The notes: generated from the sequence alone by a model not told the origin. A stretch of DNA of 45,697 nucleotides from Reclinomonas americana ATCC 50394 (GCA_048213135.1 PS015038.1:14831-60527), one strand, 5' to 3'. Shown: positions 1 through 45,697, numbered from the stretch's first letter. Translations and numbers: made by a program.

Positions 1-4960
<4,960 letters not shown>

Positions 4961-5818: not shown

Positions 5819-9665
<3,847 letters not shown>

Positions 9666-9739
9666 TCACAAAGAGAGAACAGAGAGAGTTTGTGTTGATT
9701 GATTGAGTGGGCAAGTCGACTTCATTGCAAGGGTTTCTC

Positions 9740-10190
9740 AAGAGAAGAGAGAGTGTTTAGGAAGATGAGGACTGTGCCTTCACTTCTTGTTGTGAGCTTC
9801 TCATGGCTCTCACAGAAGAGAGACTGTTGAGTGATAAGCTTGCATCGTCCTTCACTTGTCGTTGTTTGACACCACTTGTTGTGCCTCTCAGAGAAGAGAG
9901 GGTGTTTTGGAAGATGAGCATCGTGTCTCTACTTCTCGTTGTGTGCTTCCCATGTCTCTCAGAGAACTGCGACTCTTGACTGATGAGCTTGACTTGCAGC
10001 ACTTGTCATTGTTTGGCAGCACTTGTTGTGCCTCTCGGAGGAGAGACAGAGAGATTGTTGATTAAGTGAGCGAGGAAGCCATGAGCACCGTGTCTCTACT
10101 TCTCGTTGTGTGCTTCACACAGTTCTCAGAGGAGAGTGACATGACTGATAAGCTTGCAGCACACGTCCTTCACTTGTCGTTGCTGATACC
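9740..10190. repeat. Degenerate tandem repeat, about three units of 150-170 bp
   Basis: Recurring atgagca.cgtgtctctacttctcgttgtgtgcttc, tgataagcttgca and cacttgttgtgcctctc blocks. Confidence 0.8.
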
Positions 10191-10604: not shown

Positions 10605-11779
10605 TCAATGCCGCCGCATATTGAGCCCCGTCGGCGAGATAGCATTGAGCTTCACAATGAGTTCGGTTTCCGCCTCCTCCAGCGTCAGCGAGTACGGGTG
10701 GGGGTTGTTGTGGATGAAGATGATGCTGTGTGATAGGCAATGAGCAACAGCACGAGCATCTTGTTCAGCAGCAACATTTTCTGACGTATACGTACCCCGA
10801 CTCGCGCATCTTTGCGCCGCCGACCTTGGCCATGTAAGCATGCAGCAGGTACACCCTTTCCTTTTCGCCGCGAGCCGCGTCATGCGCGCAACGGCAATGT
10901 TGCCTGAAGCGAGCACGGCACTCTTGTTCAGTCTTGCCCACGTACACTTGGTGCTGGTGCTCGATCTCGACATCCGGCACTAAGAAGCAGTACATCACGC
11001 CGCTCGACGATGTCGTCGGCATCTCCCATTGAGTGATCTTGGCGTTGCAGCAAGCCTTGTGGCATAGCTGGATCTGCTCTCGAAACCGCGACGACAGCAT
11101 GAGCTCCTCGATGCGCTCCTTCGTCAGGCACTCCGGATCCGCCCGACCTCCAGGTTCACAGTCGGCGAGGGACCGCACATGAATCTCGGTGGGCGTCGGG
11201 CAGGCGTCGCTCGATTCCGACGCCTCCAAATTTCCGAACACCACCTTCTCAACGCACGTCAAGTGGCCGAGTTCCACGGGCACGACATGCTGTCCAGGCG
11301 TCTCCATGAGGAGCGCGTCGCGCCGCTCGATCTGCTGCAGCCGCAGCTGCCGGCGCTGTCGTAGCTGCAGTGGAGTCTCGTGTTGTGCCGGCAACTGTTG
11401 ATGCTCCTGGGGCTGCTCCGGTGCCGCCTGCCGACGAGCTCGGTCGCTGTGAGGCTCAGGACACGTTGGCTTCTTGTGTCCGTAATGGCCACAGTTACCA
11501 CACGCATTCTTGAGCCTACAATACAGCGTGACGTCGTCTCCGATGCTGGCATCATCGCAAAGCTCGTGACCCCGGTTGGAACTGAAAAGCCGGAGGCGCT
11601 CGATGGGGATCCGTTCTTTTCGTTTGGTGTACTCGAGCTCGTCGACGACCGCTCTTTTGATGGAGCAGATTGTCGTGTTGTCCTTCTTGTACTCCACACG
11701 CAGAATGACCTTCTCACCGCGCTTAACAACCACAGTGAACACCTGATGCAAAATAGGTGATCATGAGATCGAGCGAGAC

Positions 11780-11827
<48 letters not shown>

Positions 11828-12384
11828 GAGGGGAGGAGANNNNNNNNNNNNNNNNNNNNNNNNNNNNNNNNNNNNNNNNNNNNNNNNNNNNNNNNNNNNN
11901 NNNNNNNNNNNNNNNNNNNNNNNNNNNNNNNNNNNNNNNNNNNNNNNNNNNNNNNNNNNNNNNNNNNNNNNNNNNNNNNNNNNNNNNNNNNNNNNNNNNN
12001 NNNNNNNNNNNNNNNNNNNNNNNNNNNNNNNNNNNNNNNNNNNNNNNNNNNNNNNNNNNNNNNNNNNNNNNNNNNNNNNNNNNNNNNNNNNNNNNNNNNN
12101 NNNNNNNNNNNNNNNNNNNNNNNNNNNNNNNNNNNNNNNNNNNNNNNNNNNNNNNNNNNNNNNNNNNNNNNNNNNNNNNNNNNNNNNNNNNNNNNNNNNN
12201 NNNNNNNNNNNNNNNNNNNNNNNNNNNNNNNNNNNNNNNNNNNNNNNNNNNNNNNNNNNNNNNNNNNNNNNNNNNNNNNNNNNNNNNNNNNNNNNNNNNN
12301 NNNNNNNNNNNNNNNNNNNNNNNNNNNNNNNNNNNNNNNNNNNNNNNNNNNNNNNNNNNNNNNNNNNNNNNNNNNNNNNNNNNN

Positions 12385-12421
<37 letters not shown>

Positions 12422-12556
12422 CAGAGAGAGAGAGGAGGGGGGAAGGGAGAGAGAAGAGAGACGACCACAGCGCGCGTGATGAAGCAACAGACATGATCAT
12501 GACAAAGAACGAAATGACGGCAGCAAGAAAGTGGGTCGAGTGTGAGCGTGTGAGAA

Positions 12557-12598
<42 letters not shown>

Positions 12599-12664
12599 TG
12601 TGTGCAAGAGAGACAAGGAGGCGGCGGATGAGAATGGAGAAGGTGGAGACGATCTGCTCACCAT
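10605..12664 (-). CDS. Ubiquitin-like + CCHC zinc knuckle + GIY-YIG endonuclease fusion protein (~356 aa)
   Basis: Model: join(12664-12662, 11742-10796, 10725-10605). Ubl pattern VFTVVVK...TTICSIKRAV...IPIERLRLF...ELCDDASIG..VTLY. Knuckle CGNCGHYGHKKPTC. GIY-YIG motifs GVMYCF, VYVGKT, RFRQH, EEAETELI and SPTGLN. The ATG-only first exon is tentative because its intron spans an N gap. Confidence 0.75.
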
Positions 12665-12926
12665 GATTCTATTTTTTGTGTGAGTGAGCTTGACAACATT
12701 TGTCACTTTTGCGGGCAATCTCTCTGCTCACTGCTCCTGAAGCATGCTTGCTGATCTCTCGGTGGAGGAGTGTGGTGTCGCAAGTGGGAGTGCAGTCTCG
12801 CTGCTCCTCGGCAGATATCATGATACCCGTAGAGGCGACGTCGGGCGTACGCGTCGACGTTCTGCGCATGCAGCAGATTTCTTGTCATGCTCGCATACAG
12901 AGCGAATGGCGCCTCTCTCTGCATGC

Positions 12927-12960
<34 letters not shown>

Positions 12961-13419
12961 TGCAAGTCTGATGCATTCTGAGTTGCATTTCGGGACAGGT
13001 GATATCGGCATTCTCTTTCTCTCTGTCTGCAACACACTCTCGCAACGCGGCATCCGTGGGTGAGCCACGATGGGCGTCTCGACTTCTGCGCCCACCGCTG
13101 TCCCATGGCCGCACTTTACATAACACTTACCCGAGCGCTGAATGGCCCCGAAAGTGCATGTGAATGCCGCTGTCACCACAGACATCATGACAAGCAGTGA
13201 GTTGTCGGTGCGTGCGTGCATGTGTTCAGGCCCCCCATCAGTGCTTTCCTCACATTGCTCTCTTTGCATGCTGGCAGCCGGAGCAAGCACTCGATGATGA
13301 GTTGCCAGAGGCGAAGGTGCGTGTGCAAGAGTGGGAGTGAGAGAGGGAGGGGGAAGGGGGAAGAAAGGAGAGAGAAGAGAGACAGAGATTGGGAGAGGGA
13401 GGGGTAAGAGAGAGAGATG

Positions 13420-13728
13420 GAGAAGAGAGGCCGTAAGGCACGAGCGAAGAGAGAGGGGAAAGAAGAGAGTGACGGAGAGACGGAGAAGAGAGGCCGTGAG
13501 GCACGAGCGAAGAGAGAGGGGAAAGAAGAGAGTGACGGAGAGACAGGAGCGAAGAGAGTGAGAGAGAAGGGAGGCCGAGAGACAGAGACAGACGAAAGAT
13601 CGAGTGAGAGATGAAGAAGTGAGGCCGAGAGGCACGAGCGAAGAGAGAGGTAGAGAGACAGGAGCGTAGAGACAGAGAGAGAGAGAGAGAGAGAGGGTGA
13701 GACGGAGAAGAGAGGACGTGAGGCACGA

Positions 13729-13730
<2 letters not shown>
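13420..13730. repeat. Purine-rich minisatellite, ~57-60-bp units
   Basis: gaagagaggccgt.aggcacgagcgaagagagagg recurs about four times. Confidence 0.8.
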
Positions 13731-13793
<63 letters not shown>

Positions 13794-13936
13794 AAGGGAG
13801 AGAGAGTCAGGACTGAAGAGAGAAAATGAAAGTAAGCGAGAGAGGGAGAGAGAGACAGAAAGAGTGAGAGAAGTGAGGCTGTGAGACAGAGCACAGAGAC
13901 GAAGAGAGAAGGAAGGAGGGAACGCTGCAGCCACGC

Positions 13937-16900
13937 ATGAGCACTTCTATCTCTGCGGCAGAAACACGACAAGTGAGTCTGCCACTGCAGGTTTCTTCTC
14001 TGTATCCTTAATCCTCCTTCTCTCAACAGACTTTCGCTACCGGTCTGCGAGTGTCTTCGTCTGCTGCTCGCCGTGCACTCGCCGAGAGACGTCGCATGCA
14101 CGCTGGTGCGAGGAAGCGATCGGCATCATCCTCCCAGCTGGCATCGCCGTCGGCGCACAAGCGCTCACGATTGCCAAGTTACTCTTGCATGCCGTTGCTT
14201 GTGTGACCAGGAGTCCGAAAGTCAAGGCGGGTGTATGTGTACACAGAGGACGTGATCCGCGTGGCCATCTCACGGATGGAGCAGCAGGGAGGCCCCGTCG
14301 CGCAGCACCGTGTTGTTAACCGCATACCGAAGCTGGTGAGCGCACCAGGACTCTTCACCACGTGCCTTTTACCGTGCACTCACACATCGCACGCAGTTCA
14401 CATTCTGCCACTTGCAACTGCTGCACCGACACATCCCCGACGACGTGCTATGGATGCTCGAGGCACACGTGGCGGGTCAGGCCGAGCAGAATCGAAACCT
14501 GCACCCGTTCATTGCCGTCGGCGGTGGACCCGGCACTGGGAAGTCGCGCCTGCTGGATTCGTTTGCAACGCTGCTGGCAGAGAAGATTCCAGAAGTCGTC
14601 GAGTCGCCAGAGCAGCCGCTGCAGCGCCTGCGCCGGGCGCTTGTTGGTGGCCGCGTGACGGTTTGACGCGGGAGCGCACAAATTAACTGCCACACCAATG
14701 CTCATCCATGCGAGACCGCAGGTACCGGTGACCTTCAACAGCGGTGACGAGCTGATGCCGGAGGAGGTGCAGGCTGGTGAACCGTGGATTGGATTGAGGA
14801 TTCTGCATGCCTGGTTCGGGTCGGTGGCATTTGCAGAGTGGGTCCACGCCTATCGGCGGCAGTGTCTCGCCGACAGTGGCGCCCCGTGCGACGTTGGCGT
14901 TGCCGATGCCATTGTGGCGATCACCGACGACGTGCGGAGGAACTCCCCTGAAGGTGTGTGTGCCATTCATTGTGCCTGAACATGTGTAGCAGGTGTGCTC
15001 ATTGTTTTCGCAGTTGACGGCGACCTCGCGGTCATCATTCTCGTCGACGAGTGCCTGCGAGTGATCGAGCAGGGAGGTTCGTTTACTTCTGCTCGATTGT
15101 GTGATACGTGCCACCGACATGGTGCTTCTGATAGTGAGCCTGAGCGCGATGATGCGGCGGCTTGGTGGGCCGCTGTGCGTGCCGGCTGGGGGAGACACCA
15201 GGAATCTGGTGCTGGTGGTGTGCTCCGCGTTGGTGCTGTCGGAGTTGCAGGCCGTATTCCGCACCTCGGGACACCCCTTGGTCCCCGTGCCGCTCCCACT
15301 GTTGCTGGACCAGCACGTGGAGGAGCTTGTTGACACGGCGGTCTGCGTCGCACATCCGGACTGGGCCGACAGGTGGAGGACCTTTGGTGCGCTGCGGCAT
15401 GTGATGACGCAGATTTGTGGAGTTCCTCGTGGTGTCGAGTGTCTGGTTGCGGCGCTGGCCAGAGGCAGATGGAGGGGCGGTGGTGAGGAGGGAGGGGAAG
15501 GGGAGGGAGGGGGAGGAAGGGAGGAGAAGGGGAAGGGTGGGAGGAGAGGGGGAGGGAAGGAGGAGAAAAGGAGGGAAGGAGGAGAGGGGGAAGGAAGAAG
15601 AGAGGAGAAGAAGAAGGAGGAGAGTCAACGAAGAGGGGGAAGAGGAGAGGTTAAAGGAAGGGGGAGAAGGGGAAGGGGGAGAGTCGACAATGAGGGGAAT
15701 AGGAGAGGTTAATGGAAGGAGGAGAAGGGGTGGGTGAGAATCAACAAAGAGAGAGGTGAAGGGAAGGAGGAGAAGGGGAAGGGTGAGAGCCGACAAGGAG
15801 GAGGATGAAGAGAGGAGAAGAGGGAGGGTGAGAGTTAACAAAGTTTAGAAAGAAGTGAGGTGAAGGTTAGGGGAGAAGGGTGAGGGTGGAATCAACAAGG
15901 AGGAGGAAGAAGGAAGAGGCGATGGAAGGGGAGAAGGGGGAGGGTGCGATTCTCCATTTGTGTGGCTCTGTTGATTTCTACGCTTGTCGAAGGGAGAGAG
16001 AGAAGAAGTGTTGTGCATTACGCTTCTGTTCCGGCGAAGAGAGAGCAGAAGTATACACTGAGAACGGAGATAGAGACGGAGAGGTCTCTGTTGAGACAAA
16101 GACACACTGCAAGACGCTGCAGTGTGAGTGCGTAAAGATAAAGAGACAGAAGAGAGAACAGAAGAATGCACTGAGGTCGCAGAGAGAAAGAAAGAGAGAC
16201 GTGACACACAGCAGAGTGATGCAGAGTCAAAGACAGACTGCGACGAGAGGGAGAGCTCAGCTGTTAGGCGATATCTTTAGTGCCCTGTCACTCTGCACGC
16301 TGCTCTTGCGTCTTCGAGCGCGAATCAAGCCGTCAAGTGATCTCTCATCTCCTATCCTTTCCCATCCTTGCATGTGCGGCGGATGTGCAACATATTCCAA
16401 GATCAATTGTTGTGCTCACATGCGCCCTGCGATGCAGAGCCGGCGGACGACGTGACCGAGCTGGCGGAAATCGTGAGGCGGGGTATGCAGATAAACAACT
16501 ACAGCCAAGTGAGCCTCGCACACGTCCGTCTTCTCGAGCTGTCGACACGCCCGCTCCACAGCCTCGATGCCAAGGTGATGCTCGATGCGGGTGAGTGGAT
16601 CAAGTTCAGTACGGCTGCCTCGCTTGGCAGGGTGGCACATCGGGAGGTGTCTGTGGTATGTGTTGCTGGTCTGCACGTTCGTTGTCAGGCAAGCTTCCTG
16701 ACGAGCTCGTGACAGTTTGGGCAGAATATGTACTATCCCGTGTACCCGCCGCTGCTCTTTGATGTCCAGGGCGGGAAGAGGGCGCTGATGCAGCTGTCTG
16801 ACTGCTCCGAGGATGCTTTCAAAAGCGCATGCTGTGAAGCACTGGCCATCAAATTCTCACATCTCGACTCGAGCGACGTGTTCCTCCGAGACGTGCTGTC

Positions 16901-17302
16901 CGGGGCCAGGTTTTCGTCGTCGGTCAACTCCAGCTGCTTTGACGTCGCGGTCATGTTGCCGGAGGATGCTGCGGTGGACGTGAAACTGTGTAGTCAGGGA
17001 CTCTTTGTGCGTGGCGTCGTGTTTCAGGAGTGTTCGACACAGCTGGCTCATCACTTCCTCCCCCTCTTGTAGGAAGTGCCTTGCGAGATAAAACACGGTC
17101 GTGTTCTGCGCACTCGAGCCAAGGATTGTGCCGCCGATGCCTTTGTTGTCACTCCGATTGTTGCGTGACAAAAGAGAGGGGGTGGGGAGAGAAAGAGAGA
17201 GAGAATAATTGGAGGTGTAGTGCCAATGCTCGTGCCGCCGATACTTTTGTTGTCAACCCGATTGCTGCTGCACCTATCGCGATCACCCCTCAGAGAGAAA
17301 CA

Positions 17303-17369
<67 letters not shown>

Positions 17370-18985
17370 GGTGCCACAATTGCTGCTTGACCTGTCACTC
17401 CTCAGAGACTGAGACCGAGAGAGAAAGAGAGAGGATATGTGGAGGCTACGAGCCCAGGCTCGAGTCGCCGATGCCTCTAGTGTCACCGATTGTTGCATGG
17501 CCTCTCGCTTCTCAGAGATAGAGAGAGAGAGAACGAGTGGAGGTCGGTGCTCTTTCAGTCAGCCCGATTGTTGCGTGACCTGTCTATCCCTAGAGACAGA
17601 GAGAGAAAATGAGTGGGGGGTTTGAGTCAGGGCCTGTGTTGCCGATACCTTTGTTGTCACTCTGATTGTTGCGAATCCCGTCACTCCTCAGAGAGAGAGA
17701 GAGAGGATGAGTGGAATTGTCAAGCCAAGGCCGATGCCTTCAGTGTTGTGCAGCCTGAAACTTTCTCAGTGGTGGAGAGAGAACGTGTGGAGGCCGATGT
17801 TGTTATTGTCACTCTGATTGTTGCGAATCTCGACACTCTTCAGAGGTACAGAGAGAATGAGTGGAGGCAAAGCCGAAGCCTTCATTGGCGTGACCGCTTT
17901 CACTCAGAGACACACGCACACATAGAGAGCGAGAGAGAGAGAGACAGGGAGAATAGTGGTGGTTGAGAGTCTGTTGTCTCTGAATTCTCCGCATGTATCT
18001 CATCTCTCATTTTCAGTGTGTTAGTGTGCGTGCATTTATTGTACCCCAGCACCACTACGGGTAGTGAATATAGTAACTACCTTGCACGAATGAGCATTCA
18101 CCAGTGGTCGCCAACAATTCTCGTGCTTTCCTCATATGCGTGTATGAATGTAGGGATATGTTGCCTTCCAGTTCAAGCGGGTATGGTCACGGGCGTTGAG
18201 CGAGGACGGCTTTCTTGAAGAGTACGCCAAAGCGTTCCTCGTGCGTAAGCAGTCGACGCATACCACCGTGTCACCGCATCAACCCTAAACATCTACTTGT
18301 ATTCATGCGCGCAGCCATTCTTTGTCATTGCCGGCACCGAGTCTCGCTTGCCTCCGCTTCTGTACCCCAGGTCCGCGAGAAAGCTCGTGGCGCAGCTGGG
18401 ACGCATTGTGTGTCGCGAGCGCAGACTGAAAAAGATGAGTGACGATGAACGCAAGTTGGTGGTGCAAGTGGCCAGGGCGTGCACAGTTGAGTGGCGGCCG
18501 GTGGTCGTCTTTCTTTCCTCGCATCGAGTGATTGCGCTCACGTTCTTTTGAGAAACAGAATTTCTGGTTTGGGCTGATTGCGGTGTCGCCACACGCGGAG
18601 CTGGTGCGGCATTTGCCGGGGAATGCGTTTCTGGTGGATTCGGAGAACTTGAGCCTCTTCTTCGGGTTTATTATTGGGCCGGTGCTGGAGCGCGTGTTTG
18701 TTGGTGCGTGTGGAGAGGATGGGGAAGATAGGGAGAAGGAGACAGAGGGTTGCTTATAATGGCTTTCATGCAGGTATCAACGTCAACACCATGACAGAGG
18801 AACAGTTGCGGGAGCGCCTGCCGGTGGATCTCGTTCAACTGGAGCTGGAGGGACGCGACAGACTCGTGCGTCGGATTATGAGGAAGCGAGAGCAGCGGCA
18901 TTTTGTGTCATTGGTTGATTTCTGTGAGCGGGTGGTGGAGAGGTACAGGCTGGGCGAGGAGGTTTTGCAGTTTGTGCGGTGGTGA
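13937..18985 (+). CDS. Crinkler/RHS (CR)-type protein: P-loop NTPase + PD-(D/E/Q)xK restriction-endonuclease-like domain + degenerate HhH
   Basis: NTPase: Walker A GGPGTGKS (~14521-14546), VTFNSG, IGLRILHAWF, Walker B VIILVDE, VVCSA...PLPLL, CGVPRGVECL. REase part: LRDVLSGA, AADAFVVTPI|GYVAFQFKR (join 17159/18154), FLEEYAKA, LPGNAFLVDSENLSLFFG. C-terminus INVNTMTEEQL...RIMRKREQRHFVSLVDF. About 12 exons; the start and the junction across 15.47-16.44 kb are uncertain. Confidence 0.8.
17133..17900. repeat. Degenerate tandem copies of an exon end and donor site inside the CR-gene intron
   Basis: gccgat.c.tt.gttgtcac.c.gattgttgcg-like units at 17133, 17237, 17467, 17543, 17641, 17730, 17793 and 17872, separated by (GA)n...gtggagg. 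Confidence 0.85.
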
Positions 18986-19242
18986 TGGGAGATGGAGAGA
19001 GGGAGAAATTTAAAGAGACATGCTACAGCGACGGCATTGAACTTATCGCTCAGACGCTCGCGGGCGCACCATTGTTCATGTCTATCAATAATTATTCTTC
19101 GTTCCACACCACGAGAGCGACGTGTTGTCGTATTGTCGCTGCAGTATCTCAAAACTGCAATTGTGTACGTAGAGATCTACGTAGACGTCGAAGAACGGGA
19201 CGAAGTCCCAGCCAACCTCTTTCGATCCGTCACTTGCGTCAC

Positions 19243-19804
19243 ATGGTGAGTGATGGAATGCGCAGTTTCTGCTTGTCTCGATCTTCACTAGTGCACAGGC
19301 GTCAGCCGCAGGTTCCAAGTCGTACATGCGCGGAGCAAGCGCTGATCATCTGGAAATTGAGGACTGTTCTATCACCGGCCACGTGTCCAGCATCATCAGC
19401 ACTCTGGTCAGGTCTGTCGCCCAGTACACGCGTGTTGACTCGAACGTGAAGAAGATGTACATCGGTATGTATGCCCGTGGAGCATGACCAGACAAGTGCC
19501 ATCATGATGACGTCGACACTTTGGTTTCATCGATGCATTCTCCCATGTAGGAATTGCCAGTGGGTCGGACTATCATGCAGCACTGCGACGTCGCTGGGAC
19601 GATTACAAGCGAGAGGAAGGCATCAACCACATGGTCTGCATCTACACCAGCTCATCGCAAGACAACTGCCGCACTGTGGAGACTGAGCTCGAAGAGTACT
19701 TCCGCGAACACGATCTCAATGTTAACCGCACCGGTGGTGGCGGAGGTCCCAACTCCAAGGGCCCGGAATACTACGTCTATCTTGCCATGCGCCGTTGGGG
19801 GTGA
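19243..19804 (+). CDS. Small (140 aa) GIY-YIG-like nuclease, apparently circularly permuted
   Basis: Model: join(19243-19245, 19299-19464, 19551-19804), with clean ATG|GTGAGT, CAG|, G|GTATGT and TAG| sites. Protein: MASAAGSKSYMRGASADHLEIEDCSITGHVSSIISTLVRSVAQYTRVDSNVKKMYIGIASGSDYHAALRRRWDDYKREEGINHMVCIYTSSSQDNCRTVETELEEYFREHDLNVNRTGGGGGPNSKGPEYYVYLAMRRWG. It is not represented in the ORF track. Confidence 0.7.
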
Positions 19805-19930: not shown

Positions 19931-20705
19931 CTACACATCCTCCCCGTCCTCCGAATCCATCGCCGGCCCCGGCTGACCGGCCTTCCAAACGCCCCGCAGC
20001 ACGCACTGATGGCAAAAGGCAATGTCGGCCAGCTTCATGCTCACTGCACAGACACCATGGCACGTGGTCAGCAAAACGGCGATCGTGAGCACACCACAGC
20101 ACACACCTTTTCGACTGCTCGTGCGCTTCTTCTTCATCATATCCAATCGCTCCCGCATAACCAGCTGGTGATCCTCAGTCACCTCCTCGCCCTCCACGAG
20201 GGACCTCCGTATTATCGTGTGTTGCAACTCGTAGACCGGCAGTGCGTCGTCAGGAACTGCGCGTTGCGTGAGAGTGTAAAGAGAAGGAGTCCACCAAAGA
20301 CTCACTCACCGTTGCTGCCAAACGCAGCATCGCAGTACGTGGCCAGCAGCTCTGCAAGGACACGTCGCGGGCGCCAATCCGCCGCCTGTGAGCGACAGGC
20401 TGCTTCCAGGCGACAGAGTCGCTCACGGAGAAACGCTGCATCGTCGCCGATCTCGCTGCTCGAAAGACGGCGTACGGCCTCTCGCTCCAGCAGCCAGTTC
20501 ATGTCGGGCACTGTCTCACCAGGTGAACGCGCTGGCGAGAGAACATGGAGCAAGGAACTGGCACGCACCAGCATCCAACGAGTCGACCGCGTCATGTTGC
20601 TCCACTAATCGACGGATTACAGCGAAACAAGCTGGTGCGACAAGAGTGAGACGCCACAGGAGCGCCACATCAGAGAGGTCGCGACAAACCTGCTGCGTTT
20701 GGCAT
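19931..20705 (-). CDS. Hypothetical helical protein (~5 exons)
   Basis: In-frame GT-AG joins give MPNAAVEQHDAVDSLDAVPDMNWLLEREAVRR...AVPDDALPVYELQHTIIRR...EDGEDV*. Codon usage is coding-like; no family recognised. Confidence 0.45.
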
Positions 20706-20963
20706 CAGGAGTGGGCGAGTCTCTTGACTGCTGTGTGATGAAGGTATCAGGCGAGGTGATAGATGAACGCAGTGAACGAGAGCCTCCGCACCTTATTGGG
20801 AGCAATGTCGGTGGCAGGAACTCAAGCAGTGATCACACCCATGCCTGGTGTCGGGCGCACTGTCGCACAAGAGTTGCAATGAGTGAAGCAGGCGTGGTGT
20901 ATCTCTCTGCCCTCTGTGCTCAGTTCTTTTGCTGTCCTCTCTCNNNNNNNNNNNNNNNNNNNN

Positions 20964-25155: not shown

Positions 25156-25608
25156 TTACTCTTCTCCAACAGTCATCTTTCCTTTCAGGACTCCAGTGTG
25201 CATTCGAATCTTCTCCACCAGCTCGGCATACTTCGTCAACTTGCGGTCGTACGCCTTCTGCAACGCCTCTTCGTCCTTCTGGTACGCCACGGTGAACTCC
25301 ACAATCAGCACCTTCATCACCTGTGCATCGGCACCTGGACCTGCACGAGTCACCACAATGTCTGGTTTCAACTGTGCCAACTGGTCTTCTCCTGCTGGCA
25401 ACAAGTTCTGCGGTACTTTCTCAGTGTAGAAGATTGCCTCGCTGTGCACTCTGAGTTCCTCGTGGAAGATCGTTGCCACTCTGTTGTGCCGACTCGTCAT
25501 ATTGTCTTTCTGTGCCTCACACCAGCACAAAAAATGTGCCACTGTCTCTGGCTGTCCCTTGTTGCACACTGTGCGACCACCCAACTGACTGTACCTCTGC
25601 TTCTCCAC
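25156..25608 (-). mobile_element. 5'-truncated non-LTR retrotransposon fragment (CCHC knuckle + restriction-like endonuclease, RLE clade)
   Basis: RTVC...ETVAHFLCWC, RHN, KPDIVV, LIVEFTV and RKLTKY are the hallmark C-terminal motifs of RLE-type (R2/R4/NeSL/CRE-like) LINE ORFs. It is intronless and no RT is seen upstream. Confidence 0.8.
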
Positions 25609-26072
25609 GGACGGAACATGACGCGCAGCTGTGCATTAGTGACTATCCCAATTGACATACTGAGAAACATCGGTGACTTGCAAGTAGAACTTCTTCGCTC
25701 TCTGATCTTTCCACTCTTACTCATACTCCCTTCTCCCTCCCTCTCCTTTTCTCTCTCTCACTCCCCCTTCCCCTCTTTTCCCTTTCCCTATAATCCTCTG
25801 AAGTACCTTCTCTATCCCAAGTGACATACTGAGAATCATCGGTGACTTGCAAGTAGAACTGATTTGCTCTCTCCCTCCCTCTCCCTTTCTCTCTCCTTCC
25901 CTCCCCTTCCCCTCTTTTCCCTTTCCCTCTCCCTCCCTCTCCCTTCCCCTCTCCCTCCCTCTCCCTCTTCTCCCTCCTTCCCTCCCCCTTCCCCTCTTTT
26001 CCCTTTCCCTCTTTATCCCTTTCCCTCTCTATCCCTTTCCCTATTATCCTCTATATTATCCCCTTTACTAAT

Positions 26073-30856: not shown

Positions 30857-30926
30857 TAGAGAGAGAGAGACGACACACTANNNNNNNNNNNNNNNNNNNN
30901 GGGTGAGAGAGAGAGAGCACATCCAG

Positions 30927-31728: not shown

Positions 31729-33784
31729 TCATTGTTTTGTGGTGCGACGAGCGAGGGCTGCGTGGATGAATCTGTGCGGGTCGTCGTGGTCGTTGTCGTG
31801 TATGTGTGCGTGTGTGAGTGTTTGCAATGAACGTGGTGAGTGTCGACAGTGGAGGGGAGAAGGCGCAACTCGTCGAGATCGCCGTCGAGTACGTTTTGCA
31901 CGTCGGTCCGTTGCACGCCGGTGCGCAGGTCCTTGACCAGCTGGGTGTGCATGAGAGAGAGTGAGAGAGAGAGAGAGAAAAACGGCACCCTTCATCTGAC
32001 TCTGCACTCTTGCCCTTCTCGCCGCACTTTTCACTCTTGATATCTCGCCGTGACTGACATAGTCATTCTCCCTTGTTAACTCTGCCCTGCGCCCTTCATT
32101 CTTGATATCTCTGCTCTTTAGTCCTATACCCTTGTAATATGGCTTTCTTGCGCCTCACCCGTTGCCCTCCACCCTTCTCCTCTTATCACCCTTTGCCCTC
32201 TCATCGCCCTCACCCTGTCCCTCTTTGCCCTACACCCTTCCCCTCGTATCACCCTTTGCCTTCTCATCGCCCTCACCCTGTCCCTCCTTGCCCTCCACCC
32301 TTCCCCTCTAATCACCCTTTGCCCTCTCATCGCCCTCACCCTGTCCCTCCTTGCCCTCCACCCTGTCCCTCTTTCACCCTTCCCCCTCTTCCCCCTTCCC
32401 TCTTTGTCGCACCTGGTACGGGGCCATCACATACGACCGAATCTGCGATCCCCACGCATTCTCGCCGAGACTCGCCGCAAATGCCTCCTTTTCCGCCGCT
32501 CTGCCGAGAAGGGGTGAGTGCAACCACCAGCTGAGGGAGAAGCACTGATGCTCATCGCACCGCTTCTGCTGCTCACGCAAAAAGAGCTTGGCACGCAGCA
32601 ACTCGAGTGCGCGCGCCTTATTCGAGTGCTGCGAGCGCTCGGACTGGCACTCTGTGCAGAAGAGTGAGCATCACCCTCTCCTTCACAAGACCTTTTTCAT
32701 AACAGCCACGCACCAGCAACGAGTCCAGTCGGCAAGTGCACGATGCGCACCGCACTCTCGGTGGTGTTCACATGCTGGCCACCGGCGCCGCTGGAGCGAA
32801 ACGTCTCCACGCGCAGATCCTTGACCGGCAACTCGCCCACACCGCTGCCCTCTTCGGCACCACCATCGACAATCGGCAGCACCACCACCGACGCAAACGA
32901 CGTGTGCCGCCGCCCCAGCGCATCAAACGGCGAGATGCGCACCAGGCGGTGCACGCCGACCTCCGGCGCCAAATGCCCATACGCAAACGGCGCCGGCACA
33001 CGCAGGCTCCACGATCGCTCCCCGCTCGACATGACCTCGCCTGCCACGAGTGAGCCACGAGGAGGCGCAGCAGGCTCCGAGCACGAAAAAAAACGCAACA
33101 AGGAAACGCCTGCGCAGTCGCCCACCGACTGTACATGCGTGCCAACATCGCCGCCCAATCGCCGCTCTCCGTGCCACCCGCGCCCGCATGAATCTCCACG
33201 TAGGCGCCAGCCGACACGTTCGGATTATCGCCACACATCACCACCTCCGTATGCAACCGGACCGCCTCCCGCACAACGCGCCGCCACGCGACCACACACT
33301 CCCGCGCAACCTCCTCGTCTCCCGCCTCCCTCGCCATCTCCGACAACTCCACCAGCTGGCGACACTCGGTCGACAAGCGATCCGCCGACTCGACACACTG
33401 CTTCAGCTGCCCGTACTCGCGAAGCAGCGCCTGTGCACGATCGCGTCGCGTTCCACCGGCACCAAACAGGTTCTGAACAGCGCGGGTAAGCGATCAGATG
33501 CACGCATGAGAACGCCTATAGTGTGCCTCGCATACCTCTGTCTGCTCCTGCAACGCACGCAGGCGATCGGCCGCACCTGTGACCTGCAATCGCTGCTGCA
33601 CAGCGTCGAGCAGCTGCTGCGTGCGTCGCGACTCCTCCATCACTGCGGACACACTCATAGTCAGCACTGTGCGTGTAAAGGCCTTTGTTGCGTACACACA
33701 CACACAGACACAACTGGCGACCAGCGCGGCAAGTGGCGACGCTGCTGCAGTGGAACAACATCGCAAGACAACTCTCCTCAGCAT
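31729..33784 (-). CDS. Mitochondrial peptide chain release factor 2 (PrfB-like, mtRF2)
   Basis: Presequence-like [43 protein letters not shown] (SPF tripeptide = RF2); [42 protein letters not shown]. Seven exons. Confidence 0.93.
32150..32370. repeat. Tandem 60-bp minisatellite (~3.5 copies) in an mtRF2 intron
   Basis: cctcaccctgtccctc.ttgccct.cacccttcccctc..atcaccctttgcc.tctcatcg is repeated. Confidence 0.9.
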
Positions 33785-34510
33785 TTCACTCCTCCGCCCT
33801 CACAATCTGCACGCGCGTCCCACTCAAGCAATCGCGTGCGTCGCGCCTCCACGTCGACACCACCACACAGCGCCAGTGTCGCACAACAATCATCGCACAA
33901 GCTCATTGGCAATCGCGCAGGCAACTCGTCATCATCGGTCTCATTGGCGTGCATGAGACAGTGCGCAGCGTCGCAGTGCGGGAGGCGAGCAAGTGCGTGG
34001 CCGACCTCGTGCGTGCACACTTGCAGTGCGTGGTGGCGCGAGGGCAGGCGCGCCAGTGAGACCACGGCCACGCGGTGCTCCAGTGAGGCTTGTCCGTATG
34101 TGAAACTCCAGTGTTGTGCCGGGAACACGTCGTAGAGTGTGAGGCCGAGGACAATGAGCGGTGTGTCGCTGGTGAGTGTGCGCAGGCGGTGTAGCAGGTC
34201 GGTGGTCAGCAGCTGCTTCTCGTGTGTCACTGCGTGGCGGCGACGTGTGATGCCGGCCAGGTTTGGGATGGGTGGGGAGAGTGTGGCGTGCCATGGGTGG
34301 TAGAAGGCCGAGAGGAGGGAGGTGAGGAGTGGGAGCAGGTTGGGGAAGCTGTGTGTGCGTGTGTGTGAAGGTGTGAGCACAGGGGGGCAGAGTGAGAGTG
34401 AAGGATGGGAGCATGCACCGTTCGTCAACCGCGGCCTCGTCCCACGTGTGCCCGAGTGGTACGATGAGGATGCGACCGGCGGCGGCGGCGTCGCGACACT
34501 CGTCACTCAT
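33778..34510 (-). CDS. Archaemetzincin-like zinc metalloprotease (peptidase M54, ~220 aa)
   Basis: Model: join(34510-34419, 34348-33778). Motifs RILIVPLG, VLGLTLYDVF..WSFTYGQAS...VAVVSLARL, HEVGHALARLPHC, CLM, LCDDC. Confidence 0.85.
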
Positions 34511-41201: not shown

Positions 41202-41803
41202 GAGTGAGAGAGAACGTCGACTGTGTCCCCTGTCATTTGTTGTGTTGTTGACAGTGATGGCGAGCTCGTCGCAGCAGCAGAGTCGAGCCAAGCGATGTCT
41301 TGGTGANNNNNNNNNNNNNNNNNNNNNNNNNNNNNNNNNNNNNNNNNNNNNNNNNNNNNNNNNNNNNNNNNNNNNNNNNNNNNNNNNNNNNNNNNNNNNN
41401 NNNNNNNNNNNNNNNNNNNNNNNNNNNNNNNNNNNNNNNNNNNNNNNNNNNNNNNNNNNNNNNNNNNNNNNNNNNNNNNNNNNNNNNNNNNNNNNNNNNN
41501 NNNNNNNNNNNNNNNNNNNNNNNNNNNNNNNNNNNNNNNNNNNNNNNNNNNNNNNNNNNNNNNNNNNNNNNNNNNNNNNNNNNNNNNNNNNNNNNNNNNN
41601 NNNNNNNNNNNNNNNNNNNNNNNNNNNNNNNNNNNNNNNNNNNNNNNNNNNNNNNNNNNNNNNNNNNNNNNNNNNNNNNNNNNNNNNNNNNNNNNNNNNN
41701 NNNNNNNNNNNNNNNNNNNNNNNNNNNNNNNNNNNNNNNNNNNNNNNNNNNNNNNNNNNNNNNNNNNNNNNNNNNNNNNNNNNNNNNNNNNNNNCGTGTA
41801 TGT

Positions 41804-43990: not shown

Positions 43991-45697
43991 TCACTCGCGC
44001 ACCCGCGAGCCATCTCCTCCTGCACGGCACAGAAAACCAAGTGAGTGATTCGCAGCAAAAAAAGCCACATCAACAATGTACAAAGACACACGCACCCCTT
44101 CGGTACTTCTGCTTGGGGCTGTCGGCGCCGTCGTCGATCTCGCCCTCGTCACTCGGCTCACGCTCACGCTCCCGAGAGTGTTTCTGGAGAATGCGTGCGT
44201 GCGAATTCAGTGAATCTCGAGGTGAATAGCACCCGTGATCGCACACACTCACCCGCCCGGCACGGCCCTCGCTTTCCACTTCCATCTTCCGGGAGTCGGG
44301 CGAGCGCTCGCGACTGCGCTTCCGCTGCACAAAACGAAGGAAATTATTGTCAGTGTGAGCAGGCAGATAAAAGTCAGCACCGCACTGCACTCACCCTTGA
44401 CGGCGAACGCGATGACGTGCGCGAATCACGACGCCGGGAGCTGGAAAGCGAGGGCGACACCGAGCGGTCACGAGTCTCTGCGCCATTCTCTGCCTGTGCC
44501 CCGCTCTCACGTCTGCTCCGCAGCCGTTCCACGTACTCAGCAAATACCTTGGCCGCCACGGACTCTTCTAGGTGACGGTACGACGAGTGCCCTTCGAGCG
44601 AGGCCTTCAGTTCATCCTGCACGAGCCACCAATCAGCACGCAGCACACACGTGATATCGTAGATGCGCACAGCCTTCACGCAACATTCCATTCGTCTGTC
44701 TCGCGAATGTGCTTGCGCTTGAGGAGATCACGGAAACGANNNNNNNNNNNNNNNNNNNNNNNNNNNNNNNNNNNNNNNNNNNNNNNNNNNNNNNNNNNNN
44801 NNNNNNNNNNNNNNNNNNNNNNNNNNNNNNNNNNNNNNNNNNNNNNNNNNNNNNNNNNNNNNNNNNNNNNNNNNNNNNNNNNNNNNNNNNNNNNNNNNNN
44901 NNNNNNNNNNNNNNNNNNNNNNNNNNNNNNNNNNNNNNNNNNNNNNNNNNNNNNNNNNNNNNNNNNNNNNNNNNNNNNNNNNNNNNNNNNNNNNNNNNNN
45001 NNNNNNNNNNNNNNNNNNNNNNNNNNNNNNNNNNNNNNNNNNNNNNNNNNNNNNNNNNNNNNNNNNNNNNNNNNNTCCATGTCCTCCTGCATGCGCTTCT
45101 CCTGCTCCTTGGCCTTGTCGGCAAGGCGCTTCACCATCTGCTCAGCAGCAAAAATAAGGTGACTGACAATGGAGAGTGTCGACGCCAACCCCCGCTCTCG
45201 ACTATTCACAGACCTTGCGATGAATCCACGGGAGGTGAGCACGTGTGAGCTTGGGTGCATCTTCCGCAGCGAAAAAGGAAACAAAAGTGTCAAAGTCTGT
45301 ATCAACGGCAAACTCAATCTTCTTGTCCTGCAGTCGCACAGGTGTGAGTGAGTATGCAGCACATGAACGACAGGGAAAGAGAGCTGACAAACCTCCAGGT
45401 ACCGCTTGATGACCTTGGCTTCGTCGCGGGCGACCTTTTCGAGCTCATCCATAAAATCGCTGAACAGGTGGTGAGCAGATATCCTGCACGTGGTGGTGGA
45501 GTGAGATGAGATGAGTGAGCGGGATGCGCCTCGAAGAGTATGCACACGTGCACACGCAACTCTCGCTGCTCCTCCATGGCCTTGGTGGCCGGATGATCGG
45601 CAATGGTGGGCTCGAAATCGCGCCAGCGCGTGCTGAGAACGAGCTCGCCCGCCTCTTGCTTCTGCGTCAGGAGTTGCTGTGCAGCGAATCAACCGTG
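43991..45697 (-). CDS. PRP40: Pre-mRNA-processing factor 40 (PRP40/PRPF40), C-terminal FF-domain part; extends beyond the window
   Basis: GELVLSTRWRDFEPTI..HP...M, LFSDFMDELEK, FAVDTDFDTF, RFRDLLK....DEWN|DELK..LE...Y.....KVFAEYV (FF repeats), then an RS-rich tail and SDEGEI. Confidence 0.8.

Follow-up and report, generated by a model that had tools for sequence, protein, structure and literature searches.

A candidate cluster of GIY-YIG-like genes around a P-loop NTPase gene at a Reclinomonas americana locus

Gene content of the locus

In a 45,697-nucleotide stretch of DNA from Reclinomonas americana ATCC 50394 (GCA_048213135.1 PS015038.1:14831-60527; hereafter the window, numbered from its first letter), the locus at 10605-19804 holds four intron-bearing coding units, which we call G1, G2, G2b and G3. 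An earlier note on this DNA, made from the sequence alone, had described the locus as three adjacent nuclease genes: one encoding a ubiquitin-like (Ubl) domain, a zinc knuckle and a GIY-YIG domain, one a header-less Crinkler-RHS (CR) protein with nucleoside triphosphatase (NTPase) and restriction endonuclease (REase) domains, and one a permuted GIY-YIG protein. The 45.7-kb window is eukaryotic in character, with ~55% GC, many GA/CT and TG microsatellites and short GT-AG introns; its seven runs of N (3939-4591, 5960-6149, 11840-12384, 20944-20963, 30881-30900, 41307-41794 and 44740-45075) lie mostly beside GA/CT repeats, and because the assembly is fragmentary around such repeats the gene models are limited.

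Our gene models are hand-built exons joined at GT-AG sites. The spliced frames of all four units are open, with GC of 0.55-0.68, 0.37-0.46 and 0.68-0.75 at the first, second and third codon positions (GC1/2/3), while pieces of the spermidine synthase, RF-1 and Misato genes of the same window give 0.61-0.71, 0.39-0.56 and 0.71-0.79, and introns and spacers have a GC of 0.46-0.59. Since this codon-position pattern resembles that of the housekeeping neighbours, G1, G2, G2b and G3 are real coding genes of host-like composition, and the intron-containing coding units of the earlier description stand at their places. The ten modelled introns span 57-955 nt, the short ones 57-86 nt. G1, on the minus strand, and G2, on the plus strand, are divergent as had been proposed, and are separated by at least 2.5 kb of GA-repeat DNA that includes an assembly gap of 545 N (11840-12384). 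Throughout, Pfam, PDB and homologue searches and structure predictions used single unspliced exons, spliced proteins entering only the local hidden Markov model (HMM), shuffle and alignment work and a tblastn search within the window.

A zinc-knuckle gene with a probable GIY-YIG core

G1 (10605-11742, minus strand; GC1/2/3 of 0.63/0.41/0.73) is represented by its last two exons, 11742-10796 and 10725-10608, separated by a 70-nt GT-AG intron (10726-10795) and followed by a stop codon at 10607-10605. Its upstream exon opens at an acceptor AG (11744-11743) and has no in-frame ATG, so that one or more exons bearing the start codon should lie in or beyond the run of N. From its N-terminal end the protein offers a beta-grasp-like (Ubl-like) segment (11512-11742), a CCHC zinc knuckle with the exact spacing C-x2-C-x4-H-x4-C (11461-11502), a long low-complexity linker of ~140 aa and a GIY-YIG-type nuclease core (10608-11013) that the intron splits. 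The knuckle is certain: the motif is read directly, zf-CCHC_4 (E = 0.0023) and zf-CCHC_6 (E = 0.026) both match it, and a zinc-knuckle match is the only one in Pfam when the 331-aa open reading frame (ORF) is scanned whole. The N-terminal segment could conceivably be a Ubl domain, its sole Pfam match over 83 aa being Ubiquitin_4 (PF18036; E = 0.13), which at 12.8 bits falls short of the 22.8 required. Scanned by segments, G1 thus gives the domain order proposed earlier, through weak matches (E = 0.13, 0.0023 and 0.016, the last to PF01541); every one belongs to the predicted type of family and every one is sub-threshold. As a separate observation, the G1 knuckle finds weak tblastn echoes in a CCHC gene at 7303-8472 (minus strand) that is otherwise dissimilar to G1.

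The spliced core carries VMY, VYVG, R-A-R-F-R-Q-H, K-M-R-E (the Glu at Arg+38) and H-N-N in that order. Motif spacing in UvrC serves as a yardstick for GIY-YIG domains, with a YIG-like strand 10-13 residues after the GIY-like strand, then an Arg, a Glu ~37 residues later and an Asn; aligned to 30 bacterial GIY-YIG domains, G1 has both this order and this spacing. PF01541 matches a 96-aa segment (E = 0.016) at 16.0 bits, below its gathering score of 22.6. The same 45-50 residues are picked by the SLX1 chain 7wme_A in a PDB sequence search (ORF residues 252-303, E = 2.2), by three PADLOC models for PDC-S14 (residues 246-290, E = 0.017-0.061) and by a local YhbQ-type HMM built from the 30 bacterial domains (9.5 bits, a score equalled by 1 of 5000 shuffles). 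We scanned two PDC-S14 members: both contain DUF4357, and in one of them a weak GIY-YIG match falls at the corresponding place. Judged by these sequence features, G1 is probably a GIY-YIG nuclease.

Among known proteins the likeness is to GIY-YIG domains of the SLX1/YhbQ type (URI; PF01541), with which G1 shares the Tyr strands, an R-x3-QH helix, the Glu and the Asn, in order, and it is on this core that its best PDB and Pfam matches fall. SLX1 pairs its GIY-YIG domain with a C-terminal RING/PHD-type finger; G1 instead has the beta-grasp-like N-terminal segment, the CCHC knuckle and the ~140-aa linker, scores below the Pfam cut-off and yielded no homologue. A limited literature search over titles and abstract openings, weak evidence in itself, found no description of a beta-grasp-like, CCHC and GIY-YIG architecture. 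Should the domain assignments be right, G1 would place a GIY-YIG nuclease core behind a beta-grasp-like segment and a CCHC knuckle, an architecture seemingly undescribed.

A P-loop NTPase gene with few relatives

G2 (plus strand; GC1/2/3 of 0.68/0.43/0.75) comprises seven exons joined at GT-AG sites: 14276-14335, 14397-14660, 14722-14953, 15014-15076, 15135-15482, 16438-16655 and 16716-17072, the last ending in TAG. Five of its introns measure 58-61 nt, and intron 5, at 955 nt, is GA-rich and uncertain. That G2 is a P-loop NTPase is certain, for a Walker A motif, GGGPGTGKS (14520-14546), and a Walker B-like VIILVDE in exon 4 (15014-15076) are read directly; Pfam adds AAA_16 (E = 0.001) and other generic P-loop families, and an NCBIfam scan gave generic P-loop or chance matches only. 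The NTPase region of ~320 aa is followed by a 72-aa exon and a 118-aa exon, a C-terminal region of ~190 aa, and as modelled ~20 residues precede the NTPase domain. The frame remains open upstream of the ATG at 14276 back to 14207, with repeats and a gap farther upstream, so an unseen 5' exon is possible and G2 can no longer be called header-less with any safety.

A HMMER search with exon 5 against 1.84 billion representatives returned five matches at E <= 1e-3. Two are true relatives, P0002 (E = 2.6e-12, 40% identity) and P0004 (E = 8.5e-8, 46% identity), with 31 invariant columns, and both have the look of ORFs called on contigs of eukaryotic origin; P0001, P0003 and P0005 were rejected, being proteins full of internal repeats in which the match breaks into 4-8 short pieces. 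The family of the G2 NTPase is therefore present elsewhere, if very rare in current data. Compared by eye with window positions 15014-15160, P0002 at residues ~37-80 appears to run through an intron at about the place of G2 intron 4, behind the Walker B strand, and an old intron position common to the family is suggested. P0002 also matches VMAP-M0 (E = 0.0014). We rejected a link between G2 and STAND or NB-ARC proteins, a local HMM from 13 bacterial NB-ARC regions giving 3.0 bits, equalled by 14 of 2000 shuffles; the Pfam NACHT match (E = 0.1-0.18) covers the P-loop only, and a G-V/L-P-R string resembles GxP by eye only. Searched against PDB, a profile of exon 5 (A1) found nothing meaningful, only ribosomal uL4 at E >= 0.09.

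The region behind the NTPase is the part that had been read as a nuclease. Exon 7 contains a putative PD-(D/E)xK motif, FDVAV ... VDVK (D-x12-DxK; 16938-16985), and this is a motif only: the 118-aa exon has no Pfam match, whole or in three sub-pieces, and finds no nuclease in PDB by sequence. Exon 6, the putative helix-turn-helix (HTH), likewise has no Pfam match, and its PHROG match to a 'transcriptional repressor' stands at E = 0.14. On this sequence evidence it is doubtful that the putative REase is a true nuclease.

A helix-hairpin-helix unit and the gene boundaries

Downstream of the G2 stop a non-coding stretch of 1.2 kb contains a dispersed repeat of 64 nt in six copies that have diverged from one another (family D8; 17133-17856), with a GC of 0.51 and weak GC3-GC2 periodicity compared with exons. 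It ends at G2b, three exons (18315-18500, 18559-18703 and 18774-18985, plus strand) with an open spliced frame and GC1/2/3 of 0.63/0.37/0.73, in which a helix-hairpin-helix (HhH) DNA-binding module occupies 18774-18982 (HHH_6, E = 0.0031; T2SSK, E = 0.017). The first Met is at 18435, and the frame is open for 62 codons upstream of it.

G2b may be a gene of its own or may form the 3' end of G2. A donor GTGCGT at 17007 could be joined in frame to the acceptor at 18315; the 21 codons past that donor keep a GC of 0.71/0.33/0.71 and look coding, which favours a G2 that ends at 17072. A join of G2b to G3 is formally possible as well. The earlier note had placed its third gene about 260 bp after the CR gene, evidently because it took 18315-18985 as the end of that gene; the distance requires both that these exons belong to G2 and that G3 starts at an ATG at 19245, and the G2 stop at 17072 lies 2.2 kb upstream of G3. 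We rejected the ATG at 19245 as the start of G3, as it demands a 20-nt intron against 57-955 nt in the ten modelled introns.

A colinear MUG113-like gene

G3 (~130 aa, plus strand) has two exons, 19326-19464 and 19551-19804, with an intron of 86 nt. Exon 2 matches MUG113 (PF13455) at E = 0.014 and 16.4 bits, short of the gathering score of 22.3, and its two halves match the same family separately (E = 0.089 and 0.078); a match to phrog_9888 reaches E = 6.6e-4. When spliced G3 is added with mafft --add to an alignment of 22 MUG113 domains from bacterial genomes, the two are colinear and the order of the strands agrees: exon 1 supplies the first two, Y-T-R-V and then M-Y-I-G across the intron, and the terminal E-Y-Y-V-Y sits at the E-W/F-F strand of the family. 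With exon 1 included the strands thus follow family order and G3 is not permuted, the 'GIY' once supposed to be displaced being the terminal E-Y-Y-V-Y strand.

To the MUG113/T5orf172 families (PF13455, PF10544) G3 is alike in its Y-x-R-V strand, YIG strand and Arg-rich helix, in an E-x-E-L-x2-Y/F helix that would carry the catalytic Glu, and in a terminal strand of Glu and two aromatic residues; it differs in a Gly-rich insert before the last strand, in the 86-nt intron inside the YIG strand and in its sub-threshold score. PMC10448857 describes T5orf172 as a subfamily of GIY-YIG whose catalytic Glu is inferred, and the MUG113/T5orf172 families are common in phages and large DNA viruses. Exon 2 found nothing meaningful in PDB by sequence, and no relatives of G3 appeared in IMG/VR, in GTDB genomes or, by tblastn, in phage records. 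Membership of G3 in the GIY-YIG superfamily, as a predicted protein of the MUG113/T5orf172 type, has modest support. The statement that all three genes encode predicted DNases therefore divides: G1 and G3 have specific, if sub-threshold, matches in the GIY-YIG clan, and G2 has a bare motif.

Origin and function of the cluster

Within 9 kb, two genes of the GIY-YIG superfamily flank an NTPase gene and an HhH binder, a suggestive arrangement. With ~35 gene pieces passed through Pfam, ~0.5 chance matches are expected at E near 0.015, and the repeated matches within the predicted clan go beyond chance expectation. A nuclease-gene cluster is plausible, if weakly supported. Selfish or homing elements and conflict systems characteristically carry nucleases of this sort, which makes that descent the likeliest for this cluster; the reading we favour, tentatively and at a shade under an even chance, is a small cluster of nuclear genes, long resident and restricted to one lineage, that are built from DNA-targeting modules and have a selfish-element or conflict ancestry.

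If, as we infer, the genes supply nuclease activity, cooperate and play a part in defence, G1 would join its beta-grasp-like start, CCHC knuckle and linker to a GIY-YIG core of the SLX1/YhbQ kind, and both G1 and G3 would cut DNA by one-metal GIY-YIG chemistry through Tyr, Arg and Glu. The knuckle of G1 would hold nucleic acid; G3 might owe its grip on nucleic acid to the HhH module, should G2b and G3 form one gene; and NTP binding or hydrolysis by G2 would be the switch for the action of its C-terminus. The cluster would then act on foreign or damaged DNA.

Several results weigh against a DNA-targeting cluster. All nuclease-family matches lie below the curated cut-off, and nothing links G1, G2, G2b and G3 functionally. 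The 331-aa G1 ORF, scanned whole, has no GIY-YIG match in Pfam at E <= 1; no homologue was found at E <= 1e-3 among 1393 candidates (proteins of 182-580 aa), there was no usable Atlas match, and a single-sequence AlphaFold2 (AF2) model of the ORF, which does not include the last exon, is unusable (predicted local distance difference test, pLDDT, 39.6). For G2 exon 7, none of 191 candidates (longer proteins) was a homologue, and the single-sequence AF2 model (pLDDT 41.8) is again unusable, with a low-confidence alpha-beta-beta-beta-alpha pattern that gave no Foldseek match in PDB at E <= 0.001, the top rows being unrelated proteins; a D/DxK motif is, moreover, easily supplied by chance. A search for homologues of G3 exon 2 among proteins of similar length gave no candidate, the Atlas matches of G3 (0.87-0.90) are leads only, and a narrow local MUG113 HMM scored spliced G3 at 4.7 bits, equalled by 6 of 2000 shuffles, exon 1 adding nothing. 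The boundaries of G2, G2b and G3 are ambiguous, several joins being possible.

The lack of any functional tie also suits an account in which the genes are chance neighbours, fast-evolving, lineage-specific and unrelated, with G1 and G3 as ordinary repair or structure-specific nucleases, SLX1-like and MUG113-like respectively, and G2 as an NTPase without a nuclease. We judge this unlikely, though deserving serious thought: the REase of G2 has no family, PDB or fold support, the composition is host-like, mobile-element borders are absent from the window, and PADLOC gave weak matches to the P-loop and the GIY-YIG core only. Against it, typical eukaryotic gene order would hardly bring two members of an uncommon nuclease superfamily, with an NTPase and an HhH unit between them, into 9 kb, an impression that is unquantified.

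That the locus is a split CR system, with the Ubl header on G1 and a header-less NTPase-HTH-REase protein in G2, forming a defence or effector locus, had been the earlier proposal, and we now consider it very improbable and unsupported. Pfam has Crinkler and RHSP models, and in the single-exon scans the pieces of G2 drew generic P-loop families and none specific to CR proteins, with nothing for the putative HTH and REase exons, so that the assignment of G2 as a CR NTPase-REase is unsupported. Nor did the Ubl-like start of G1 match a Crinkler header family or display an LxLFLAK-type motif, which leaves the idea of a header carried by the GIY-YIG partner without a footing. As far as a partial text of PMC5289972 goes, the commonest CR C-terminus is NTPase, HTH and REase, a single polypeptide carries both header and toxin, and the C-terminal domains listed do not include GIY-YIG. 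G2 accordingly resembles CR effectors, by the same partial account, in that two short modules, of a size and order that fit, come after its P-loop NTPase, and it is also eukaryotic, lineage-restricted and fast-evolving; the weak Ubl-like start of G1, divergent from its neighbour G2, agrees with a split. Unlike those effectors, G2 as modelled has no header (~20 residues before the NTPase, with a 5' exon possible), no CR-specific match and a REase motif only.

The claim of a defence function fares no better in the PADLOC comparison, where the matches (PDC-S14, E = 0.017; HEC-01A, E = 0.0015; PtuA, E = 0.0064) are all weak, touch only the P-loop and the GIY-YIG core, and yield no system-level match. 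The locus is like prokaryotic defence islands in the adjacency of genes with nuclease and NTPase modules, and unlike them in that its genes are eukaryotic and bear introns and its PADLOC matches are weak. A protist nuclear conflict locus is improbable in our estimation. In it a lineage-specific NTPase with a cryptic nuclease end, a very divergent CR-like module, would act with the two flanking GIY-YIG-superfamily nucleases against viruses, endosymbionts or selfish DNA, one nuclease having a ubiquitin-like adaptor and a knuckle and the other perhaps being fused to an HhH module; were it true, the locus would parallel, in a eukaryote, the defence islands of bacteria.

A further alternative is an old, ameliorated insertion of a giant virus, a polinton-like virus or a large DNA transposon, whose nuclease, NTPase and DNA-binding genes would since have gained introns and host codon usage. 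Genes of the GIY-YIG/T5orf172 type are a regular feature of phages, of large DNA viruses of eukaryotes and of polinton-like viruses, the genes here are orphan-like, and the Atlas look-alikes of G3 exon 2, leads only, are small viral proteins (scores 0.87-0.90), one cluster having 42% GIY-YIG members. A further ORF of 159 aa, 5 kb from the cluster (25159-25635, minus strand), shows, behind a Cys/His cluster, the PD-(D/E)xK-like pattern K-P-D-I-V-V ... I-V-E-F-T-V, with only weak Pfam matches, to DUF6305 (E = 0.0076-0.033) and L_protein_N (E = 0.06). The pattern recalls the restriction-like endonuclease of R2-type retroelements, and the ORF is possibly another nuclease remnant.

We nevertheless regard such an insertion as rather improbable. 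No IMG/VR viral contig matched G1, G3 exon 2, G2 exon 5 (profile A1) or G2 exon 7, and no related loci were found in JGI metagenomes, in GTDB genomes or, by tblastn, in phage records. The element borders sought, terminal inverted or long terminal repeats, are absent, the repeats present being microsatellites and short dispersed ones, and we noticed no ORF for a capsid, a polymerase or an integrase. Codon-position GC matches that of host genes, and the intron at the Walker B exon, apparently at a similar place in P0002 when compared by eye, would point to an old eukaryotic gene family. A cluster of long-resident host genes that derive from selfish or conflict elements thus stays our preferred, if tentative, reading. 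If the domain calls hold, it would be a rare instance of a eukaryote whose nuclease and NTPase genes lie physically together and would bear on defence-island-like arrangements in eukaryotes; its value is mainly as a pointer to three or four genes almost without relatives in billions of sequences.

Flanking genes and repeats

The flanks are mostly housekeeping in character, as had been stated, with Pfam matches to spermidine synthase (E = 2e-21), RF-1 (E = 5e-16), Tubulin_3/Misato (E = 1e-10) and zf-CCHC (E = 3e-5). The last of these is for one knuckle of the neighbouring gene at 7303-8472 (minus strand), which has several CCHC knuckles. A minus-strand gene does converge on G3: at 19934-20604, it ends ~130 bp from the G3 stop and encodes a hydrophobic tail anchor after a basic stretch. 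Its sole match is SNARE (PF05739, E = 0.14), and instead of an orphan the gene may simply encode a tail-anchored protein of the SNARE-like kind. By eye we also recognised an RPL36-like ORF near 37.6 kb, and an ORF at 33781-34506 (minus strand) has a metalloprotease motif of the H-E-x-x-H type, a weak Matrixin match (E = 0.055) and, by eye, the look of an archaemetzincin-type peptidase.

Searching the window with the spliced proteins by tblastn gave no paralogues, and the RNA gene scans of the window gave no Rfam family and no tRNA. Its repeats include a perfect (TG)67 microsatellite at 9050-9183 and a tandem repeat of ~150 nt at 9739-10158, upstream of the G1 3' end (families D10-D12). Neither the latter nor the dispersed repeat at 17133-17856 has an Rfam match; by eye, the two have in common a theme of TTGTTG ... 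CTCAGAGAG.

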